Of a stretch of 64,000 bases of DNA, positions 14,880 through 56,344 are shown one piece after another (the first letter of the stretch is position 1; every line of letters starts with the position of its first letter). The position numbers were made by a program, and so were the translations under genes. The DNA is from Carcharhinus amblyrhynchos (Eukaryota), in NCBI GenBank assembly GCA_965287045.1, contig OZ336887.1, positions 39,742,001 through 39,806,000 on the forward strand, read 5' to 3'. The notes under the pieces were generated by a model. It searched no databases, was not told the origin of the DNA, and saw only the letters and a program-made list of their open reading frames with translations.

Positions 14880-17310
14880 ACCATAGAACCATAGAAGATT
14901 ACAGCTTAGAAACATGCCTTTTGACCCTTTTTGTCTGTGCCAAACCATTTTTTGCCTTATCCCACTGACCTGCACTTGGGCCATATCCCTCCATACCCCT
15001 CTCATCCATGAACCTGTCCAAGTTTTTCTTAAATGTTAAAAGTGACCCCGCATTTACCACTTTATCCGGCAGCTCATTCCACACTCCCACTACTCTCTGC
15101 ATGAAGAAGCCCCCCCCAGTATTCCCTTTAAATTTTTCTCCTTTCACCCTTAACCCATGCCCTCTGGTTTTTTTCTCCCCTAGCCGCAGTGGAAAAAGTC
15201 TGCTTGCATTCACTCTATATATACCCATCAAAATCTTATACACCTCTATCAAATCTTCCCTCATTCTTCTACGCTCCAGGGAATAAAGTCCTAACCTATT
15301 CAATCTCTCTCTAACTCAGCTTCTCAAGTCCCGGCAACATCCTTGTGAACCTTTTCTGCACTCTTTCAACCTTATTTACATCCTTCCTGTAACTAGGTGA
15401 CCAAAACTGTACACAATACTCTAAATTCGGCCAATGCCTTATATAACCTTACCATAACACTCCAACTTTTATACTCGATACTCCAATTTATAAAGGCCAA
15501 TGTACCAAAAGCACTCTTTACGACCCTATCTGCCTGTGACGTCACTTTTAGTGAATTCTGTACCTGTATTCCCAGATCCCGGTGTTCAACTGCACTCTTC
15601 AGAGTCCTACCATTTAGCCTGTGTGTTCTACTTCGGTTTGTCCTTCCAAAGTGCAATACCTCACACTTTTCTGCATTAAATTCCATTTGCCATTTTTCAG
15701 CCCATTTTTCTAGTTGGTCCAAGTCCCTCTGCAAGCTTTGAAAACCTTCCTCACTGTCCATTACATCTCCAGTCTTTGTATCATCAGCAAATTTGCTGAT
15801 CCAATTTACCACATTATCATCCAGATCATATAGATGACAAACAACAATGAATACAACACTGATCCCTGTGGCACTCCAGTAGTCACAGGCCTCCACTCAG
15901 AGAAGCAATCCTCCACAACCACTCTCTGGCTTCTTCCATTGAGCCAATGTTTAATCCAATTTACAACCTCCCCATCTATATCTAGCAACTGAACCTTCCT
16001 AACTAACCTCTCATGAGGGACCTTGTCAAAGGCCTTGCTGAAATCCAAGTAGACAACATCCACCGCTTTCCCTTCATCCACTTTCCTGGTGACCTCCTAG
16101 AAAAACTATGATTGGTCAAACATGACCTATCATGCACAAAGCCATGTTGACCCTCCCTAATAAGTCCCTGTCTATCCAAATATTTGTAGATCCTATCCCT
16201 TATCACACTTTTCAATAACTTGCCAACCAACGACGTCAAACTTACTGGCCTGTAATTTCCCGGATTTCTTTTGGAACCTTTTTTAAACAACGGAACAACA
16301 TGAGCCACCCTCCAATCATCTGGCACCTCCCCAGTGAATATTGACATTTTAAATATGTCTGTCAGTGCCCCTGCAAGTTCAACACTAGTCTCCCTCAAGG
16401 TCTGTGGGAATACCCTGTCCGGTCCTGGGGATTTATCCACTCTGATTTGCCTCAAGACAGCCAGCACCTCCTCTTTAATCTGTAAAGGTTCCATGACCTC
16501 CCTACCTGTTTGCCCAATTTCCGTAGACTTCATGCCCGTTTCCTCAGTAAATACGGATGCAAAAAACCCATTTAGTATCTCCCCCATCTCTTTTGGTTCC
16601 ATACACAGTCTACCACTCTGGTCTTCAAGAGGACCAATCTTTTCCCTCACTATCCTTTTGCTCCTAACATACCTATAGAAGCTCTTTGGATTTCCCTTCA
16701 CTCTGTCTGCCAAAGCAACCTCATGCTTTCTTTTAGCCCTCCTGATTTCCCTCTTAAGTAGCTTCTTGCATTTTTATACACCTTGAGCATCTGATCTGTT
16801 CCTTGCTGCCTGTATGTTACATACAACTCTCTCTTCCTCTTAATCAGTGTTACAATCTTCCTCGAGAACCAAGGTTCCTTATCCCTATTTATTTTGCCTT
16901 TAATCCTGACAGGAGCCTACAAACTCTGCACTCTCAAAATTTCTCCTTTGAAGGCCTCCCACTTCCCATTTACATCCTTACCAGAGAACAGCCTGTGCCA
17001 ATCCACACTTCCCAGATCCCTTCTCATTTCATCAAATTTGGCCTTTTTCCAGTTCAGAGCTTCAACCCGAGGACCAGATCTATCCTTATTCATGATCAGG
17101 ATCCAAAGTGTTCCCTCACATTCACATCCATCACCTGCCCTAACTCATTTCCCAATAGGAGATCCAGTATGGCATCCTCTCTAGTTGGCATCTCTATATA
17201 CTGATGTAGAAAATTCTCCTGAACACATTTAACAAACTCTACCGTGTCTAAATCTTTAACAGTATGCGAGTCCCAATCTATATGTGGAAAATTAAAATCC
17301 CCTACTATTG
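14880..17310 (-). mobile_element. 5'-truncated CR1 LINE (~2.4 kb): end of the endonuclease plus RT, frameshifted
   Basis: IVGDFNFPHIDW, KSPGPD, PLFKKG..PGNYRPVSLTS, YLDFSKAFDKVPH, GVPQGSVL, KFADDTK, LGLYSLERRRMREDL; ttctatggttctatgg tail. Its 5' end lies ~65 nt from a TRAF7 acceptor. Confidence 0.95.
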
Positions 17311-17376
17311 TGTTCATGATGTTTAAAGTGTAGAACTGTTTACTGTCCTCATGTCCATATTTATAATTTGCTCTAG

Positions 17377-17526
<150 letters not shown>

Positions 17527-36710: not shown

Positions 36711-37546
36711 TGGTAACTGTTCATTCCTCCTTAACCAGTTGAGTGTTTGCAAATTACTCTCCGTCCTTGACCAATCGAGTGTTGTTATATAGGCCTCGCA
36801 CCTCTCCCTAGCCCCTCAGGAGTCACCGCTGTCCGTTCTGACAAAAAGACATTGAGGCGAAGCTCAGTTCCTGGCTCTGCACAGGTGCCGAGCACTTACG
36901 GTGGTGTTCTGTTTTTAATCTCCCTAGCACCTCTGACTGACAGAATGACTAATACTATTCGACAGGAAGGAACGTAAAGCCAGGCCAGCCCAAATCCCAT
37001 TAGCCTCCGTGATTATCATTGCAACCGTTGTTGTTGGTGGTGGAGGGTGGAATTTAGTCTCACAATTAAACCATGTTCTTGTGCACAATTCCCATCATCT
37101 GCGATGAAAGTTTACAAACCTATGCTCATGCTTACAGTGTACATATACATCTCACATTAACACCTTTTTAAAAATTTTATTCTAAGAGTTTAAACACCCT
37201 CCGGCTTGCAAAATCTTGGATCTGTATAGTTACAATTCAACCTCGCATCACCTCTATCTGCTGCAGATCCCATATCGTTAGCCTTTTTTTTTTCTCTCTC
37301 TCATTGTTCTGGTTGAAAGATGGTCTAGATAAATTCAATCCAGCAGATCTTCATACAAGGAGATCCTGAGGTAATCTAATTGGTTTCTTTTTTTTTTCCC
37401 TTTCAAACCAAAGAATTAAAAACCAAATGTGTTCATGGAGGGGAAATTGTGTCCGAGACCGGTCTTGGATTGGATTGGATTCTAAAGATCACTGTGCCCA
37501 CTTTTTTTGAGTCCTGAGGTTTTCTTGCCGTTTCACTGTTTCTCTG

Positions 37547-37643
37547 TCACTCTAACATGGCGTCCAGCTGGTCAGCCAAGTCATCGAACATGCTGCCAAT
37601 GTCATCGAGAATACTACCTGTGCTCTTTGCTTCAGACGCAGCC
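37547..37643 (-). CDS. CASKIN1: CASKIN1 terminal coding exon
   Basis: ccgcag|G GCT GCG...TTA GAG TGA; [31 protein letters not shown], the conserved Caskin C-terminal motif. Confidence 0.95.
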
Positions 37644-41017: not shown

Positions 41018-41337
41018 GGATGGCACAGTGGTTAGCACTGCTGCTTCACAACTCCAGGGACTTGTGTTCGATTCCCGGCTTGGGTTACTGTCTGATTGGA
41101 GTTTGCACATTTCCTTCGTGCCTGCGTGGGTTTCCTCCGGGTGCTGTGGTTTCCTCCCACAGTCCAAAGATGTGTGGGTTAGGTTAATTGGCCATGCTAA
41201 AATTGTCCCTCAGTGTACTGAGATGTGGGGATTAGCGGGTGGGATATGGGGGTAGAGCCTGGGTGGATTGTGGTCAGTGCTGACTCGATGGGCCAAATGG
41301 CCTTTTTCTGCATTGAAGGGTTTCTATGATTTCTATG
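41018..41337 (+). mobile_element. V-SINE (HE1-like)
   Basis: tggcacagtggttagcactgctgcttcac...ttctatgatttctatg. Confidence 0.88.
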
Positions 41338-42075
41338 GCCTGGTAGTCTGCCCCTCTACCTACGCAACTAGGAATCCCTGGAGTGGGAGTGTGCGGTGCC
41401 TGAGGGCACTGTCAAGGCCTTCCCTGCTCATTGGCACCACAATTGGGGTGTACTGTCGACCCCTTTAATCACATTTTAGTTTGTTTTTTTAAGTTTCCTT
41501 TCTACCTTGGTTTTTCTTTCAGGCAGTTCCCTCCTTTTTGGAGGCTGCACTTCTTAATTTGTCCCTCAGTTAATTTGGTTTACTTTATTTGGTTAGTCAA
41601 AAAGATTGACACTATAGCCCTATGTATGCGTGATGTAATCTCAATCAATAACTGTGAATGGACAGAGATAACTCCTGTGTCTTGATTGGTCTCTGCTAAT
41701 TGTAATCGAGTTTGAAACTGTAACTGCTTGTGTATTTCTTGATTCTGTACTCCAACTGGCCTTGGTGACTGGAGTCGGAGTCCACTTGCTATTGTCTTTA
41801 ATAAATCATCTTTAACCCACTCTGTGATTTTCTTTGGCTATTTGGGAGTGGTAGCTTTAACTACTACAACAAACAAAACATCAAAGAAGTCTGGTAACAG
41901 CCTCTGTCCTTGTCTACCATTCCATGTTAGTCTGATTCATGAGCCGGACTCAAACTCTGTCAACCTCACTGCGTCACCCATAGATGATGTGGCGATGCCG
42001 GCGTTGGACTGGGGTAAACACAGTAAGAAGTCTCACAACACCAGGTTAAAGTCCAACCAGTTTATTTGATAGTAA

Positions 42076-42115
42076 ACTCACAAGCTTTCGGGGTTTGCCC
42101 CTTCGTCAGGTGAGT
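42076..42115 (-). ncRNA. Minimal type I hammerhead ribozyme motif (Penelope-associated)
   Basis: ACUCAC CUGACGA A GGGG-CAAA-CCCC GAAA GCUU GUGAGU: intact core, 6-bp helix I, 4-bp helix II, palindromic AGCU helix III. Confidence 0.8.
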
Positions 42116-42998
42116 GGGGAGTTCTGATCTCAAACAGAGCACATAAAAGGCACACACAGTTTACAGAATACTGATTAGAATACGAGTCTTTACAGCTAAC
42201 CTCCACTCAAGCCTTAAAGATGCAGACAATGTGAGTGGAAATAGCATTAAGCATAGGTTAAAGAGATGTGTATTGTCTCTAGACAGGACAGTAAGTGAGA
42301 TGTTGCAAGTTCAGTCAAGTCATGGGGATTACAGATCACAGCAAACTACCCAGCCTTCAGGAGAACAGTGACCACAACACCACACAACCCTGCCACAGCA
42401 ACCTCTGCAAGGCATGCTGGATCATCGACATGGATGACATCATCTCACATGAGAACACCATCCACCAGGTACATGGTACGTACTCTCGCAACTCTGCCAA
42501 CGTTGTCTACCTGATGCACTGCAGGAAAGGAAGCCCCGAAGCCTGGTACATTGGGAGACCATGCAGGTGCTACGACAACGGATGAATGAACATCACTCGA
42601 CAATCACCAGGCAAGACTGTTCCCTTCCTGTTGGCGAACACTTCAGCAATCATGGGCATTCAGTCTCTGATCTTCGGGTAAGCGTTCTCCAAGGCAGCCT
42701 TCACGACACACGACAGCGCAGAGTCGCTGAGCAGAGACTGATAGCCAAGTTCTGCACACACGAGCATGGCCTCAACTGGGATCTTGGGTTCATGTCGCAC
42801 TATCTGTAACCATGTCACTATCTGTACTGTCTGGAGACAATACATATCTCTTTAACCTATGCCAAATGCTAGCTCCACTCACATTGTCTACATCTTTAAG
42901 ACTTGAGTAGCAGGTTAGCTGTAAAGATTCGCATTCTAATCAGTAATCTGTAAACTGTGTGTGCCTTTTATGTGCTCTGCTTGAGACCAGAAGCTTCC

Positions 42999-43038
42999 AC
43001 TCACCTGATGAAGGGGCAAACCTCGAAAGCTTGTGGGT
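42999..43038 (+). ncRNA. Minimal type I hammerhead ribozyme motif (second copy)
   Basis: ACUCAC CUGAUGA A GGGG-CAAA-CCUC GAAA GCUU GUGGGU; differences from the other copy leave G-U pairs. Confidence 0.75.
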
Positions 43039-43135
43039 TTACTATCAAATAAACTGGTTGGACTTTAACCTGGTGTTGTGAGATTTCTTACTGTGTTTAC
43101 CCATACATGGCAGAAGAAAGAAACAAGGAACTTAC

Positions 43136-43517
43136 TCTGCTTCCTGGCCCTCGTCATGTTTAATCTTCTCCTCCACGGCCTGTAAAGCTGCTGCCAATGA
43201 GGCGCTGGTTTCCTCCAGCTTCAGTTGTGCTACTTCTGTGGTGGCCATCTCCGTGGACGACCCGGCTATCGAGGACCTCGGCGGCTTGACTGGGACCTGT
43301 TGTGGCTGACCTCCGGCGATCGGTTTAGCTGGGCTCGAACACAGGGACGGTGGTGTGCTTGCTGCTTTGATAGTTGGCTGTTTGGCAGGTGAGGGGACGG
43401 GAGTCGGGCCTGCGCTCAGGGACTGGAGAATGGTGTGGGGTTTGATGGGCTTGGGTGGAGTCAGAGGGGGAGGTAGGATTGGTTTCGGGGACACAGGGGG
43501 CGGGGCACGTTTCACTT
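43136..43517 (-). CDS. CASKIN1: CASKIN1 penultimate coding exon (proline-rich)
   Basis: ttcag|AA GTG AAA...GCA GA|gtaagt; [13 protein letters not shown]...[21 protein letters not shown]; phases 1 and 2 fit the neighbouring exons. Confidence 0.94.
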
Positions 43518-43674
43518 CTGAAATAAAGATGGACACAAATAATCATGTCAAAGTCACCATAAAGAGATCGCCCACCATAGTCCAACATAGCCAGATAATC
43601 ATCCCAGGACAAGATCTCATTGCTTAATGTATCTACAGATTTTTAAATCAAAATTTATCTACTAGAATCTAGGG

Positions 43675-44340
43675 AGGCACAGATTCGATACCAGCCTTGG
43701 GTCACTGTCTGTGTGGAGTTTGTACATTCTCTCCAGTTCTGCGTGGGTTTCCTCCGGATGCTCCGGTTCCTTCCGACAGTCTAAAGATGTGCAGGTTAGG
43801 TGAACTGGCCATGCTAAATTACCCCTCAGTGTCCAAAGATGAGTAAGTTGGGTGGATCAGCCATGGTAAAATTTATTTATCATTGTCACAAGTAGGCTTA
43901 CATTAACACTGCAATGAAGGTACCGTTAAAATCCCCTAGTCGCCACACTCCGATGCCTGTTCGGGTACAACGAGGGAGAATTTAGCATGGCCAATGTACC
44001 CAATCAGCGTATCTTTTGGACTGTGGGACGAAACTGGAGCACCCAGAGGAAACCCACACAGACACGGGGAGAATGTGCAAACTCTGCACAGTGTCTGAAG
44101 ATGGGAATTAAACCCAGATCCCTAGTGCTGTGAGGCAACAGTGCTAATCACTGTGCTGCCGTGCCACCCAACCATGGTAAGGCTTACATTAACACTGCAA
44201 TGAAGTTACTGTGAAAATCCCCCAGTCGCCACATTCTGGCCCCTGTTTGGGTACACTGTGGGAGATTTTAGTATGGCCAATGCACCTAACCAGCATGTCT
44301 TTCAGGTTGTGGGAGGAAACCCATGCAGACACGAGGGGAA
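43675..44340. mobile_element. V-SINE cluster: (+) 43675-43870, (-) 43875-44168, (-) fragment 44170-44340
   Basis: Typical V-domain sequences in opposite orientations. Confidence 0.85.
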
Positions 44341-45162: not shown

Positions 45163-46135
45163 ACATAAGAACATAAGAAATAGGAGCAGGAGTAGGCCAT
45201 CTAGCCCTTCGAGCCTGCCCCGCCATTCAATAAAATCATGGCTGATCTGAAGTGAATCAGTTCCACTTTCCTGCCTGCTCCCCATAACCCTTAATTCCCC
45301 TTGTCTATCAGAAATCTATCTACCCATGACTTAAGCATATTCAATGAGGTAGCCTCCACCACTTCAATGGGCAGAGAGTTCCAGAGATTCACCACCCAAA
45401 GAACATTGAATAATGTCTTTTATTGTGCCAAAGGCACCATCATCATATCATAGAATCCCTACAGTGCAGAAGGAGGCCATTGGCCCATTGAGCCTGCATC
45501 TACTTGTTGACAGAGCATCCCACCCTGCTCCCATTCCCATAACCCCGCTAATCCCTCTAACCTACACATCTTGGGACACTAAGGGGCAATTTAGCATGAC
45601 CAGTCCGCCCAACCTGCACATCTTCGGACTGTGGGAGGAAACCAGAGCACCCAAAAAAAACCCACCAGGACATGTGGAGAACGTGCAAACTCCACATAGT
45701 CACCCGATGCTGGGAATTGAACTCAGGGCTGACAGCAGTGATAACCACTGTGCCACCATGCCGTCTCTACTACTGTGCCGCCCCCAGATGTAGCGATAAG
45801 GGCGGCATGGTAGCACACTGGTTAGCACTGCTGCTTCACAGCTCCAGGGACCTGCGTTCGATTCCCGGCTTGGGTCACTGTCTGTGTGGAGTTTGCACAT
45901 TCTCCTTGTATCTGCGTGGGTTTCCTCCGGGTGCTCTGGTTTCTTCCCATAGTCCAAAGATGTGTGGGTTAGATTGATTGGTCATGCTAAAATTGCCCCT
46001 TAGTGTCCTAAGGTGCGTAGGTTAGAGGGATTAGCAGGTAAATATGCAGGGACATGGGGGTAGGGCCTAGGTGGGATTGTGGTTGGTGCAGACTCGATGG
46101 GCCAAATGGCCTCTTTCTGCACTGTAGGGTTTCTA
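45163..46135. mobile_element. CR1 3' end (-) and head-to-head V-SINE pair: (-) 45446-45763, (+) 45800-46135
   Basis: cataagaacataagaaataggagcagg; two near-complete SINEs ~35 nt apart. Confidence 0.88.
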
Positions 46136-55383: not shown

Positions 55384-55499
55384 CAGTAAAAAGTCTGACA
55401 ACACCAGGTTTTAGTCCAACCTATTTATTTGATAATATACTCATATATTATCAAATAAATAGGTTGGACTAAAACCTGGTGTTGTCAGACTTTTTACTG
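55384..55499. repeat. Perfect 56-bp palindrome (4-nt loop) derived from Penelope-like termini
   Basis: 55384-55439 is the exact reverse complement of 55444-55499; sequence matches 42020-42070. Confidence 0.93.
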
Positions 55500-56344
55500 T
55501 GTTTACGCCAGTCCAACGCCGGCATACCCACATCACTGTACCGCCCACAGGCCTGGAGTTATTTCTCAACCAATGACACTAAATCTGATTATCTGTCTAT
55601 TATCTCATTGCTGCTTCTGGGGGCTTGCTGTATGCAAATTGGTTGCTGCATTAGCACAGTAACACAGGTGGAATTTCAGGCGAAAGAACAGTGGCAATTT
55701 CCCCACACACGGTGATTCTTTTGGAGATGTATAGGATAGTTGGATTAGCAGGGTAAATGTGTATGGTTACTGGGATAAGGCGGCACATGGGGTTTTGAGA
55801 GGGGCAGGGCCTAAACACACCCAGCTTCATGGAGGTCGATCTGGCATTGAAACTGAGGATCCCCATCCCTTCCCCGTAGACATCAGGGACCTCCCCACTA
55901 CCTCATTGAAGGAGCGTTTACCCAATCCCCCTCCAAAGATCACTGGCACCAGGGCATTGGGGTCCTGCGAAGGGTTCCCTTCATGTCCCCACTTCATGCC
56001 CACTTTCATGACTTCCCTCATGAACCGCCCCCCCCCCCCCCCCCACATGACCCCCCACTTCATTCCCCTCTTCCTAACCACCTTACTCCTCACACCCCAC
56101 CCCCTTGGCACTGCTAGGTTGGCACTGTCAGGGTGGCAGTTAGCACTGCCAGATGAGCAATGCTCAGCCATGACTCTGACCGTGGGGGGCTTCAATGACC
56201 TCTGAATCCTGCCCCCCACAGTGTGGCCATCATGCCTGGTCTCTGTTTATGGCTGAAAGAAGCAGGGGCTGAAAATATAGCAACAACTTTAACGGTATCT
56301 TGAAAATCAGTCATCTCTATCGCCTAGAAGAGCAAGGGTGGGGA

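Follow-up and report, generated by a model that had tools for sequence, protein, structure and literature searches.

The last intron of what is, from its encoded protein, most likely the shark CASKIN1 gene in Carcharhinus amblyrhynchos carries a Penelope-like insertion that we read as a neutral fossil, with a probability of roughly 0.86. In this reading, a hammerhead motif that lies in sense orientation on the pre-mRNA is predicted to be locked in a hairpin of about 270 base pairs, where it would not cut. The support from folding takes the form of equilibrium predictions for naked RNA. The stretch of 64,000 nucleotides that was analysed (here called the window) had been described in an earlier note, in which the pre-mRNA was proposed either to self-cleave in this intron or to form a long double-stranded RNA.

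The host gene runs on the minus strand, and its exons match the Pfam SAM, Caskin-Pro-rich and Caskin-tail families. For the SAM exon, the score among chains of solved structures is higher with Caskin-1, at 96.6 bits, than with Caskin-2, at 69. The penultimate coding exon (43136..43517, minus strand) covers positions 1-29 of the Caskin-tail profile and is followed by a donor GT at 43135-43134. The last exon (37030..37643, minus strand) covers positions 34-63 and is coding to about 37547, followed by 3' UTR to the contig end. The last intron between them (43135-37644) is 5,492 nt long, of the GT..AG type, with the donor GTAAGT. The outer end of the element, at 43102, lies 33 intron bases past this donor, just where the earlier note had put it. 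This proximity is not telling, because a dozen or more copies are expected that close by chance: assuming 150,000-200,000 introns in the genome, 13-17 of the 4,894 copies should have an end no more than 50 nt from a donor.

Other repeats are found in and around the gene. One upstream CASKIN1 intron holds another remnant of this Penelope family, a short fold-back stub at about 55384-55535; it is a near-perfect palindrome, truncated downstream of the hammerhead, with a tail at its right end only and an apparent short flanking duplication. Another short repeat, which we take to resemble the shark HE1 SINE, has many dispersed copies in both orientations (41023-41210, 43640-43860, 45550-46000 and others), and some pairs of it flank the penultimate exon in inverted arrangement. 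Finally, a decayed LINE with reverse-transcriptase-like reading frames, presumably of the CR1/L2-like kind, occupies 14900-17430 on the minus strand.

The Penelope-like insertion in the last intron measures 1,119 bp (41984-43102) and is comprised of two 5'-truncated copies placed head to head, with their 3' ends outward. Alignment to a sister locus, L021, puts the junction of the copies at 42336/42337, so that the plus copy extends from 42337 to 43102 and the minus copy from 42336 to 41984. The earlier note had drawn the element at 41985..43135 and seen inverted arms of some 300 bp around a broken GIY-YIG reading frame. The element, its arms and the broken GIY-YIG piece are all there, but the limits had to be redrawn, and the frame does not sit between two terminal repeats, since two truncated copies have been joined. 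The arms (about 42012-42302 and 42811-43102) are 90.8% identical over 292 nt in a single alignment; the inverted pairs within them are 42012-42202/42912-43102 at 93% and 42205-42302/42811-42908 at 88%.

The minus copy (41984..42336, 353 nt, 91% identical to L021 1466-1818) contains the terminal repeat (pLTR), a hammerhead and a tail, and is sense on the CASKIN1 pre-mRNA. Its 28-nt tail (41984..42011, minus strand) is confined to the left arm, the right arm having none. Behind 43102, loose contig ends spell tail sequence in four of four runs. The terminal repeat of the plus copy (42811..43102, plus strand) is tail-less and lacks about 26 nt at its inner end; it is antisense on the pre-mRNA and is transcribed first. 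Inward of this repeat lies the 3' fragment of the reading frame (42337..42809, plus strand), which is the end encoding the GIY-YIG endonuclease and has a frameshift near 42552-42555. This endonuclease end is the whole of the coding remnant, and no reverse transcriptase is left in the window copy. A likely target-site duplication flanks the unit, its left copy at 41976..41986 (plus strand, 11 nt, overlapping the tail end by 3 nt) and its right copy at 43099..43109 (plus strand, a match at 10 of 11, overlapping the element end by 4 nt).

A mirrored structure of this kind could be a falsely assembled repeat. Inverted Penelope-like structures are known to trouble assemblies, according to passages of PMC8557442, and among the contigs listed none bridges the left junction and none spans the whole element; in organism J, a contig with a depth of 2.5 stops at 41979 with five unaligned letters, and another stops at 43161. 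However, the arms differ by 9%, only one of them is tailed, the unit is bordered by a direct repeat, and 18 of 29 other loci show the same layout. Furthermore, the right junction is present in two DNA runs with other organism labels (30 element letters in X21 and 22 in X19, where the rule of the tool is 31). An artefact is thus extremely improbable. The insertion is probably not recent, the contig evidence being suggestive of an older, fixed one.

The element was called Penelope-like in the earlier note, and this is supported by the GIY-YIG match of a sister locus, by the hammerhead in the pLTR and by the published inverted layout. In L021, positions 907-1470 match PF01541 (GIY-YIG) with 23.6 bits, just above the cutoff of 22.6. 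The two reading-frame pieces of the window have no Pfam match when taken alone, and are 85% and 79% identical to this L021 piece. The upstream frame of L021 gives an E-value of 5.2e-6 against RVT_1, at 26.8 bits, which is below the cutoff of 29.6, and PF00078 is present in 4 of 19 longer homologues of the element protein. The best-named homologues are shark proteins. The C-terminal GIY-YIG domain and the upstream reverse transcriptase that characterise an endonuclease-bearing Penelope-like element are therefore seen through L021 and the homologues, the reverse transcriptase being absent from the window copy. The window itself has the pLTR with a hammerhead after the reading frame, and the inverted 5'-truncated copy with a tail at one end and a short target-site duplication.

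Pieces of the element reading frame also occur in several annotated shark proteins (P0005, P0008, P0012, P0014, P0015, P0018 and P0019), among them NOXP20-like, CYP2C31-like, septin 5a, XRCC5, PPP1R12A-like, IQCK and USP8 isoforms. These are either exonised copies or errors in the gene models.

Passages of PMC3846280 and PMC8557442 describe Penelope-like insertions with an inverted 5'-truncated copy, a tail of 30-40 bp at one end and duplications of 8-10 bp. The window copy shares with the insertions described there the head-to-head copies, the tail at one end, the short duplication, the C-terminal GIY-YIG domain and the pLTR hammerhead. It differs in belonging to a shark family with a sequence of its own, in its tail of 28 nt, in a duplication of about 11 nt that overlaps the ends by 3-4 nt, and in having no reverse transcriptase.

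The family is abundant. The exact 31-nt hammerhead core occurs 548 times in the genome (266+282), compared with none for the reversed control, and a search with the arm gave 4,894 first-look candidates, 40 of which were scored. Twenty-nine sister loci were compared; they are the best matches to the tailed arm, and hence a biased sample. An inverted partner with its tail outward lies within 1.5 kb in 18 of these 29 (L003, L004, L006, L010-L016, L020, L022, L023, L025-L027, L029 and L030), and the 11 others include L017-L019, which look like one duplicated locus. With the window included, one tailed and one tail-less end are found in 17 of the 19 inverted loci. The tail-less ends of inverted copies fall short of the tail end by 28-43 nt, with 38-39 nt the commonest distance. 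At least 11 flanking letters are shared, with at most one mismatch, in 16 of the 19 loci (window included), a count that has no random control beside it; the flanking duplication in the family is about 11-14 nt. Two loci, L006 and L025, have tails at both ends and no clear flanking duplication, and the arms of L006 are 99.3% alike. The clustering of the tail-less ends, together with the double-tailed copies, may be a record of two start sites and of a second route to inversion.

How such copies arise is suggested by the green anole element Poseidon. Passages of PMC11167929 tie the Poseidon tail to two start sites of reverse transcription and report nicking and extension on both target strands. 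Taken together, these two properties offer a likely route to an inverted structure with one tailed and one tail-less end. The endonuclease would nick the target, and target-primed reverse transcription would then set out from each target strand, at the tailed start site for one end and at the tail-less one for the other. As far as those passages go, Poseidon shares the pLTR hammerhead with the shark family, and the position of its tail between the two start sites fits the ends seen here. Poseidon is, however, active and arranged in tandem, while the shark copy is dead and inverted.

The loose pattern CUGAnGA..GAAA has eight matches in the 64 kb. Two of them are inside the arms, and these two, the ones that were folded, have stem I and stem II pairing both by eye and by folding. 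This agrees with the hammerhead core that the earlier note had placed in each arm. The first (42076..42115, minus strand) is a minimal type I hammerhead and, since gene and motif are both on the minus strand, is indeed sense on the pre-mRNA, with a predicted cut at 42082/42081 after CUU. It has a stem I of 6 bp (42115-42110/42081-42076), the core CUGACGA (42109-42103), an extra A, a stem II of four G-C pairs (42101-42098/42093-42090), GAAA and a palindromic AGCU. Folded in isolation, its stems have probabilities of 0.88-1.0. The second hammerhead (42999..43038, plus strand) is antisense to CASKIN1 and folds with two G-U wobbles.

The triplet CUU, also read by the earlier note, is a weak hammerhead triplet. 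Comparison with sister copies identifies it as the family's own triplet and not as damage, and older-looking copies have A instead of U at the cut position. This U extends the palindrome to six letters, AAGCUU (42089-42082, minus strand), and a dimer could over-pair A14 with U17, which would hinder the active fold. Dimer cleavage is reportedly the topic of Lunse et al.

An Rfam search, which the earlier note had suggested, matched no hammerhead family at E<=10 in scans of 6 kb and of 101 nt, and returned two chance-level matches only; the missing helix III is a plausible reason. The motif does have the features of the minimal hammerheads of metazoan Penelope-like elements as given in parts of PMC4209133, in line with the type that had been proposed for it: the core CUGAnGA/GAAA/UH, an extra base after A9 (between 9 and 10.1), the pair G10.1-C11.1, stems I and II, and a palindromic two-base link (15.2-16.2) in place of a full helix III. 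In Schistosoma, stem II has 7-8 bp according to the same source, compared with 4 bp here, where the triplet is CUU. Those parts of the paper also describe hammerhead pairs 100-700 bp apart on opposite strands, and metazoan minimal hammerheads that do not cleave as monomers and cleave at a low level as dimers. Sharks are not mentioned in those parts.

Once the motif is placed in its transcript context, its predicted fold changes entirely. When 43200-41900 is folded as pre-mRNA, 267 pairs form between the arms, in agreement with the double-stranded RNA of about 300 bp that the earlier note had foreseen, so that a long intramolecular duplex of the kind bound by ADAR is likely in the CASKIN1-like pre-mRNA as modelled. 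Locally, the duplex is worth -65.9 kcal/mol and the self-fold of the hammerhead -14.7 kcal/mol. Holding the hammerhead stems in place would cost 52.5 kcal/mol, and at equilibrium in naked RNA they have probabilities below 1e-14. Transcription reaches the antisense arm about 900 nt before the sense arm, and in three transcript prefixes that end just past the motif, the hammerhead is already predicted to be zipped. The second arm would thus pair progressively with the first, starting at its inner end, before the hammerhead is complete. The two folds are exclusive, as the earlier note had held when it proposed that they could modulate CASKIN1 processing, but because the duplex is favoured by so much and the antisense arm comes first, they would not make a balanced switch.

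Self-cleavage of the pre-mRNA finds no support either. The pre-mRNA contains a single sense hammerhead and hence no dimer partner in cis. The sense motif might still fold at times, by pairing in trans with a family transcript or with the aid of the element protein, and so, competing with the duplex, cut the last intron. Every core letter and both stems are intact, and RNA-like contigs of the family are plentiful in runs X1 and X2. According to passages of PMC11167929, Penelope-like hammerheads can be protein-assisted: that of the anole cut only with the element protein, and RNA-seq had no ends at its cut site. Intronic ribozymes are also discussed as possible regulators in parts of PMC6765202. 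Against this stand the energy penalty, the weak triplet and the lack of a second sense copy. The predicted trans dimer lies only 2.6 kcal/mol below two monomers and does not adopt the active fold, and the reading-frame pieces examined in four sister loci all have stops or frameshifts. We therefore hold such cutting to be very unlikely.

A hairpin that matters in its own right, with no part played by the ribozyme, is somewhat easier to envisage, though still unlikely. About 270 pairs of double-stranded RNA, bound or edited by ADAR, could slow or alter splicing of the last intron or shift the choice of 3' end, and so change the amount of full-length CASKIN1. The duplex is strongly predicted, it lies very near the donor, and among the 61 inverted pairs of the gene stretch 37000-64000 none scores higher. 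Inverted intronic repeats, such as inverted Alu pairs, are ADAR substrates whose editing is well established. Furthermore, a transcript that retains the intron would meet a stop one codon past the donor and drop the second half of the Caskin tail. An AAUAAA lies in pre-mRNA sense at 42066-42061 (minus strand), just downstream of the sense hammerhead; its use, like retention of the last intron, would cost the CASKIN1-like protein its last 31 residues.

However, this AAUAAA is a family feature and is buried in the duplex, and the same gene stretch has 11 inverted pairs whose arms lie no more than 2 kb apart. The donor GTAAGT stays outside the duplex, its positions being 0.64-0.97 unpaired by prediction; it is predicted to be slightly more open with the element than without it, a result that is strongly model-dependent. 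In run X1, a contig of 2,973 nt connects 43136 with 37643 (43520-43135 at record positions 1975-2360 and 37643-37030 at 2360-2973), as expected of normal splicing of the last intron. This contig, which is about 99% identical over both exons and is blind to minor isoforms, comes from organism A, a possible carrier of the insertion. Runs X1 and X2 are taken as RNA by guess, none of the 24 runs having a recorded RNA source. Under the fossil reading, U1 would still reach the unpaired donor, and splicing would remove the hairpin along with the intron. The hairpin may plausibly undergo some A-to-I editing, probably of no consequence. In the contigs, T>C and A>G differences are alike in DNA-sized runs, and thousands of paralogous contigs lie over the arms.

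The decay of the window copy gives no sign of upkeep by the host. The arms have decayed independently, like those of other copies: the minus copy is 3.8% off the majority of the sister copies (over 41985-42302) and the terminal repeat of the plus copy 6.5%, compared with a median of 4.5% for sister copies. The arm identity of 90.8% is close to the median of 91.4% in the 18 other loci, 10 of which are higher, although the comparison is rough as some of these alignments cross the junction. On this average identity, compensatory upkeep of the duplex is rejected.

No extra conservation of the window hammerhead was found relative to sister copies. It has 1 change in 40 nt, compared with 11 in 278 outside it (P=0.55 under uniform decay). 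Core and both stems are intact in 13 of 44 other copies, a set that excludes the window, two duplicates and copies under 86%. Decay of CpG is 24.7% at core positions and 25.0% elsewhere. Across copies, catalytic positions outside CpG are slightly steadier, being changed in 11 of 399 cases (2.8%), compared with 452 of 10,729 (4.2%) for other positions; this small difference, in a sample chosen for likeness to the window arm, counts a little against the fossil reading. On sequence grounds, the 'perfect' hammerhead is no more than the ordinary sequence of the family, an unselected passenger.

This sets the motif apart from intronic ribozymes that hosts have adopted. The hammerheads of RECK and C10orf118 and the HDV-like ribozyme of CPEB3 in amniotes and mammals resemble it in being sense-oriented intronic motifs of the self-cleaving kind, and are isolated, measurably cleaving and conserved, according to parts of PMC6765202 and PMC10761166. 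The shark motif is neither rare nor, by comparison with sister copies, conserved above neutral expectation: it has hundreds of identical copies, no helix III and an antisense mask, and as a monomer it is not predicted to fold and cut in its transcript context. A literature search found no paper that combines CASKIN1 and a hammerhead, and listed a single review in which sharks, Penelope and hammerhead ribozymes occur together. With inverted Alu pairs, the hairpin shares a long double-stranded RNA, about 90% paired, in a pre-mRNA, but it stems from a single insertion event.

The finding is thus of a known kind and, as it stands, of little importance: the copy is dead, its shark retrotransposon family is abundant, and both the layout and the ribozyme motif have been published. 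It is quite improbable that the insertion has become a control point of the shark lineage, where ADAR, by binding or editing the hairpin, adjusts last-intron splicing or exposes the AAUAAA or the hammerhead, giving transcripts without the C-terminal half of the Caskin tail. Were the hairpin or the ribozyme to act on CASKIN1, a neuronal gene of vertebrates would have taken a Penelope end into its service, which is rare. Taken together, the copies of the family are of modest use, as an extensive fossil record of insertion that can be compared with the two start sites measured in vitro.
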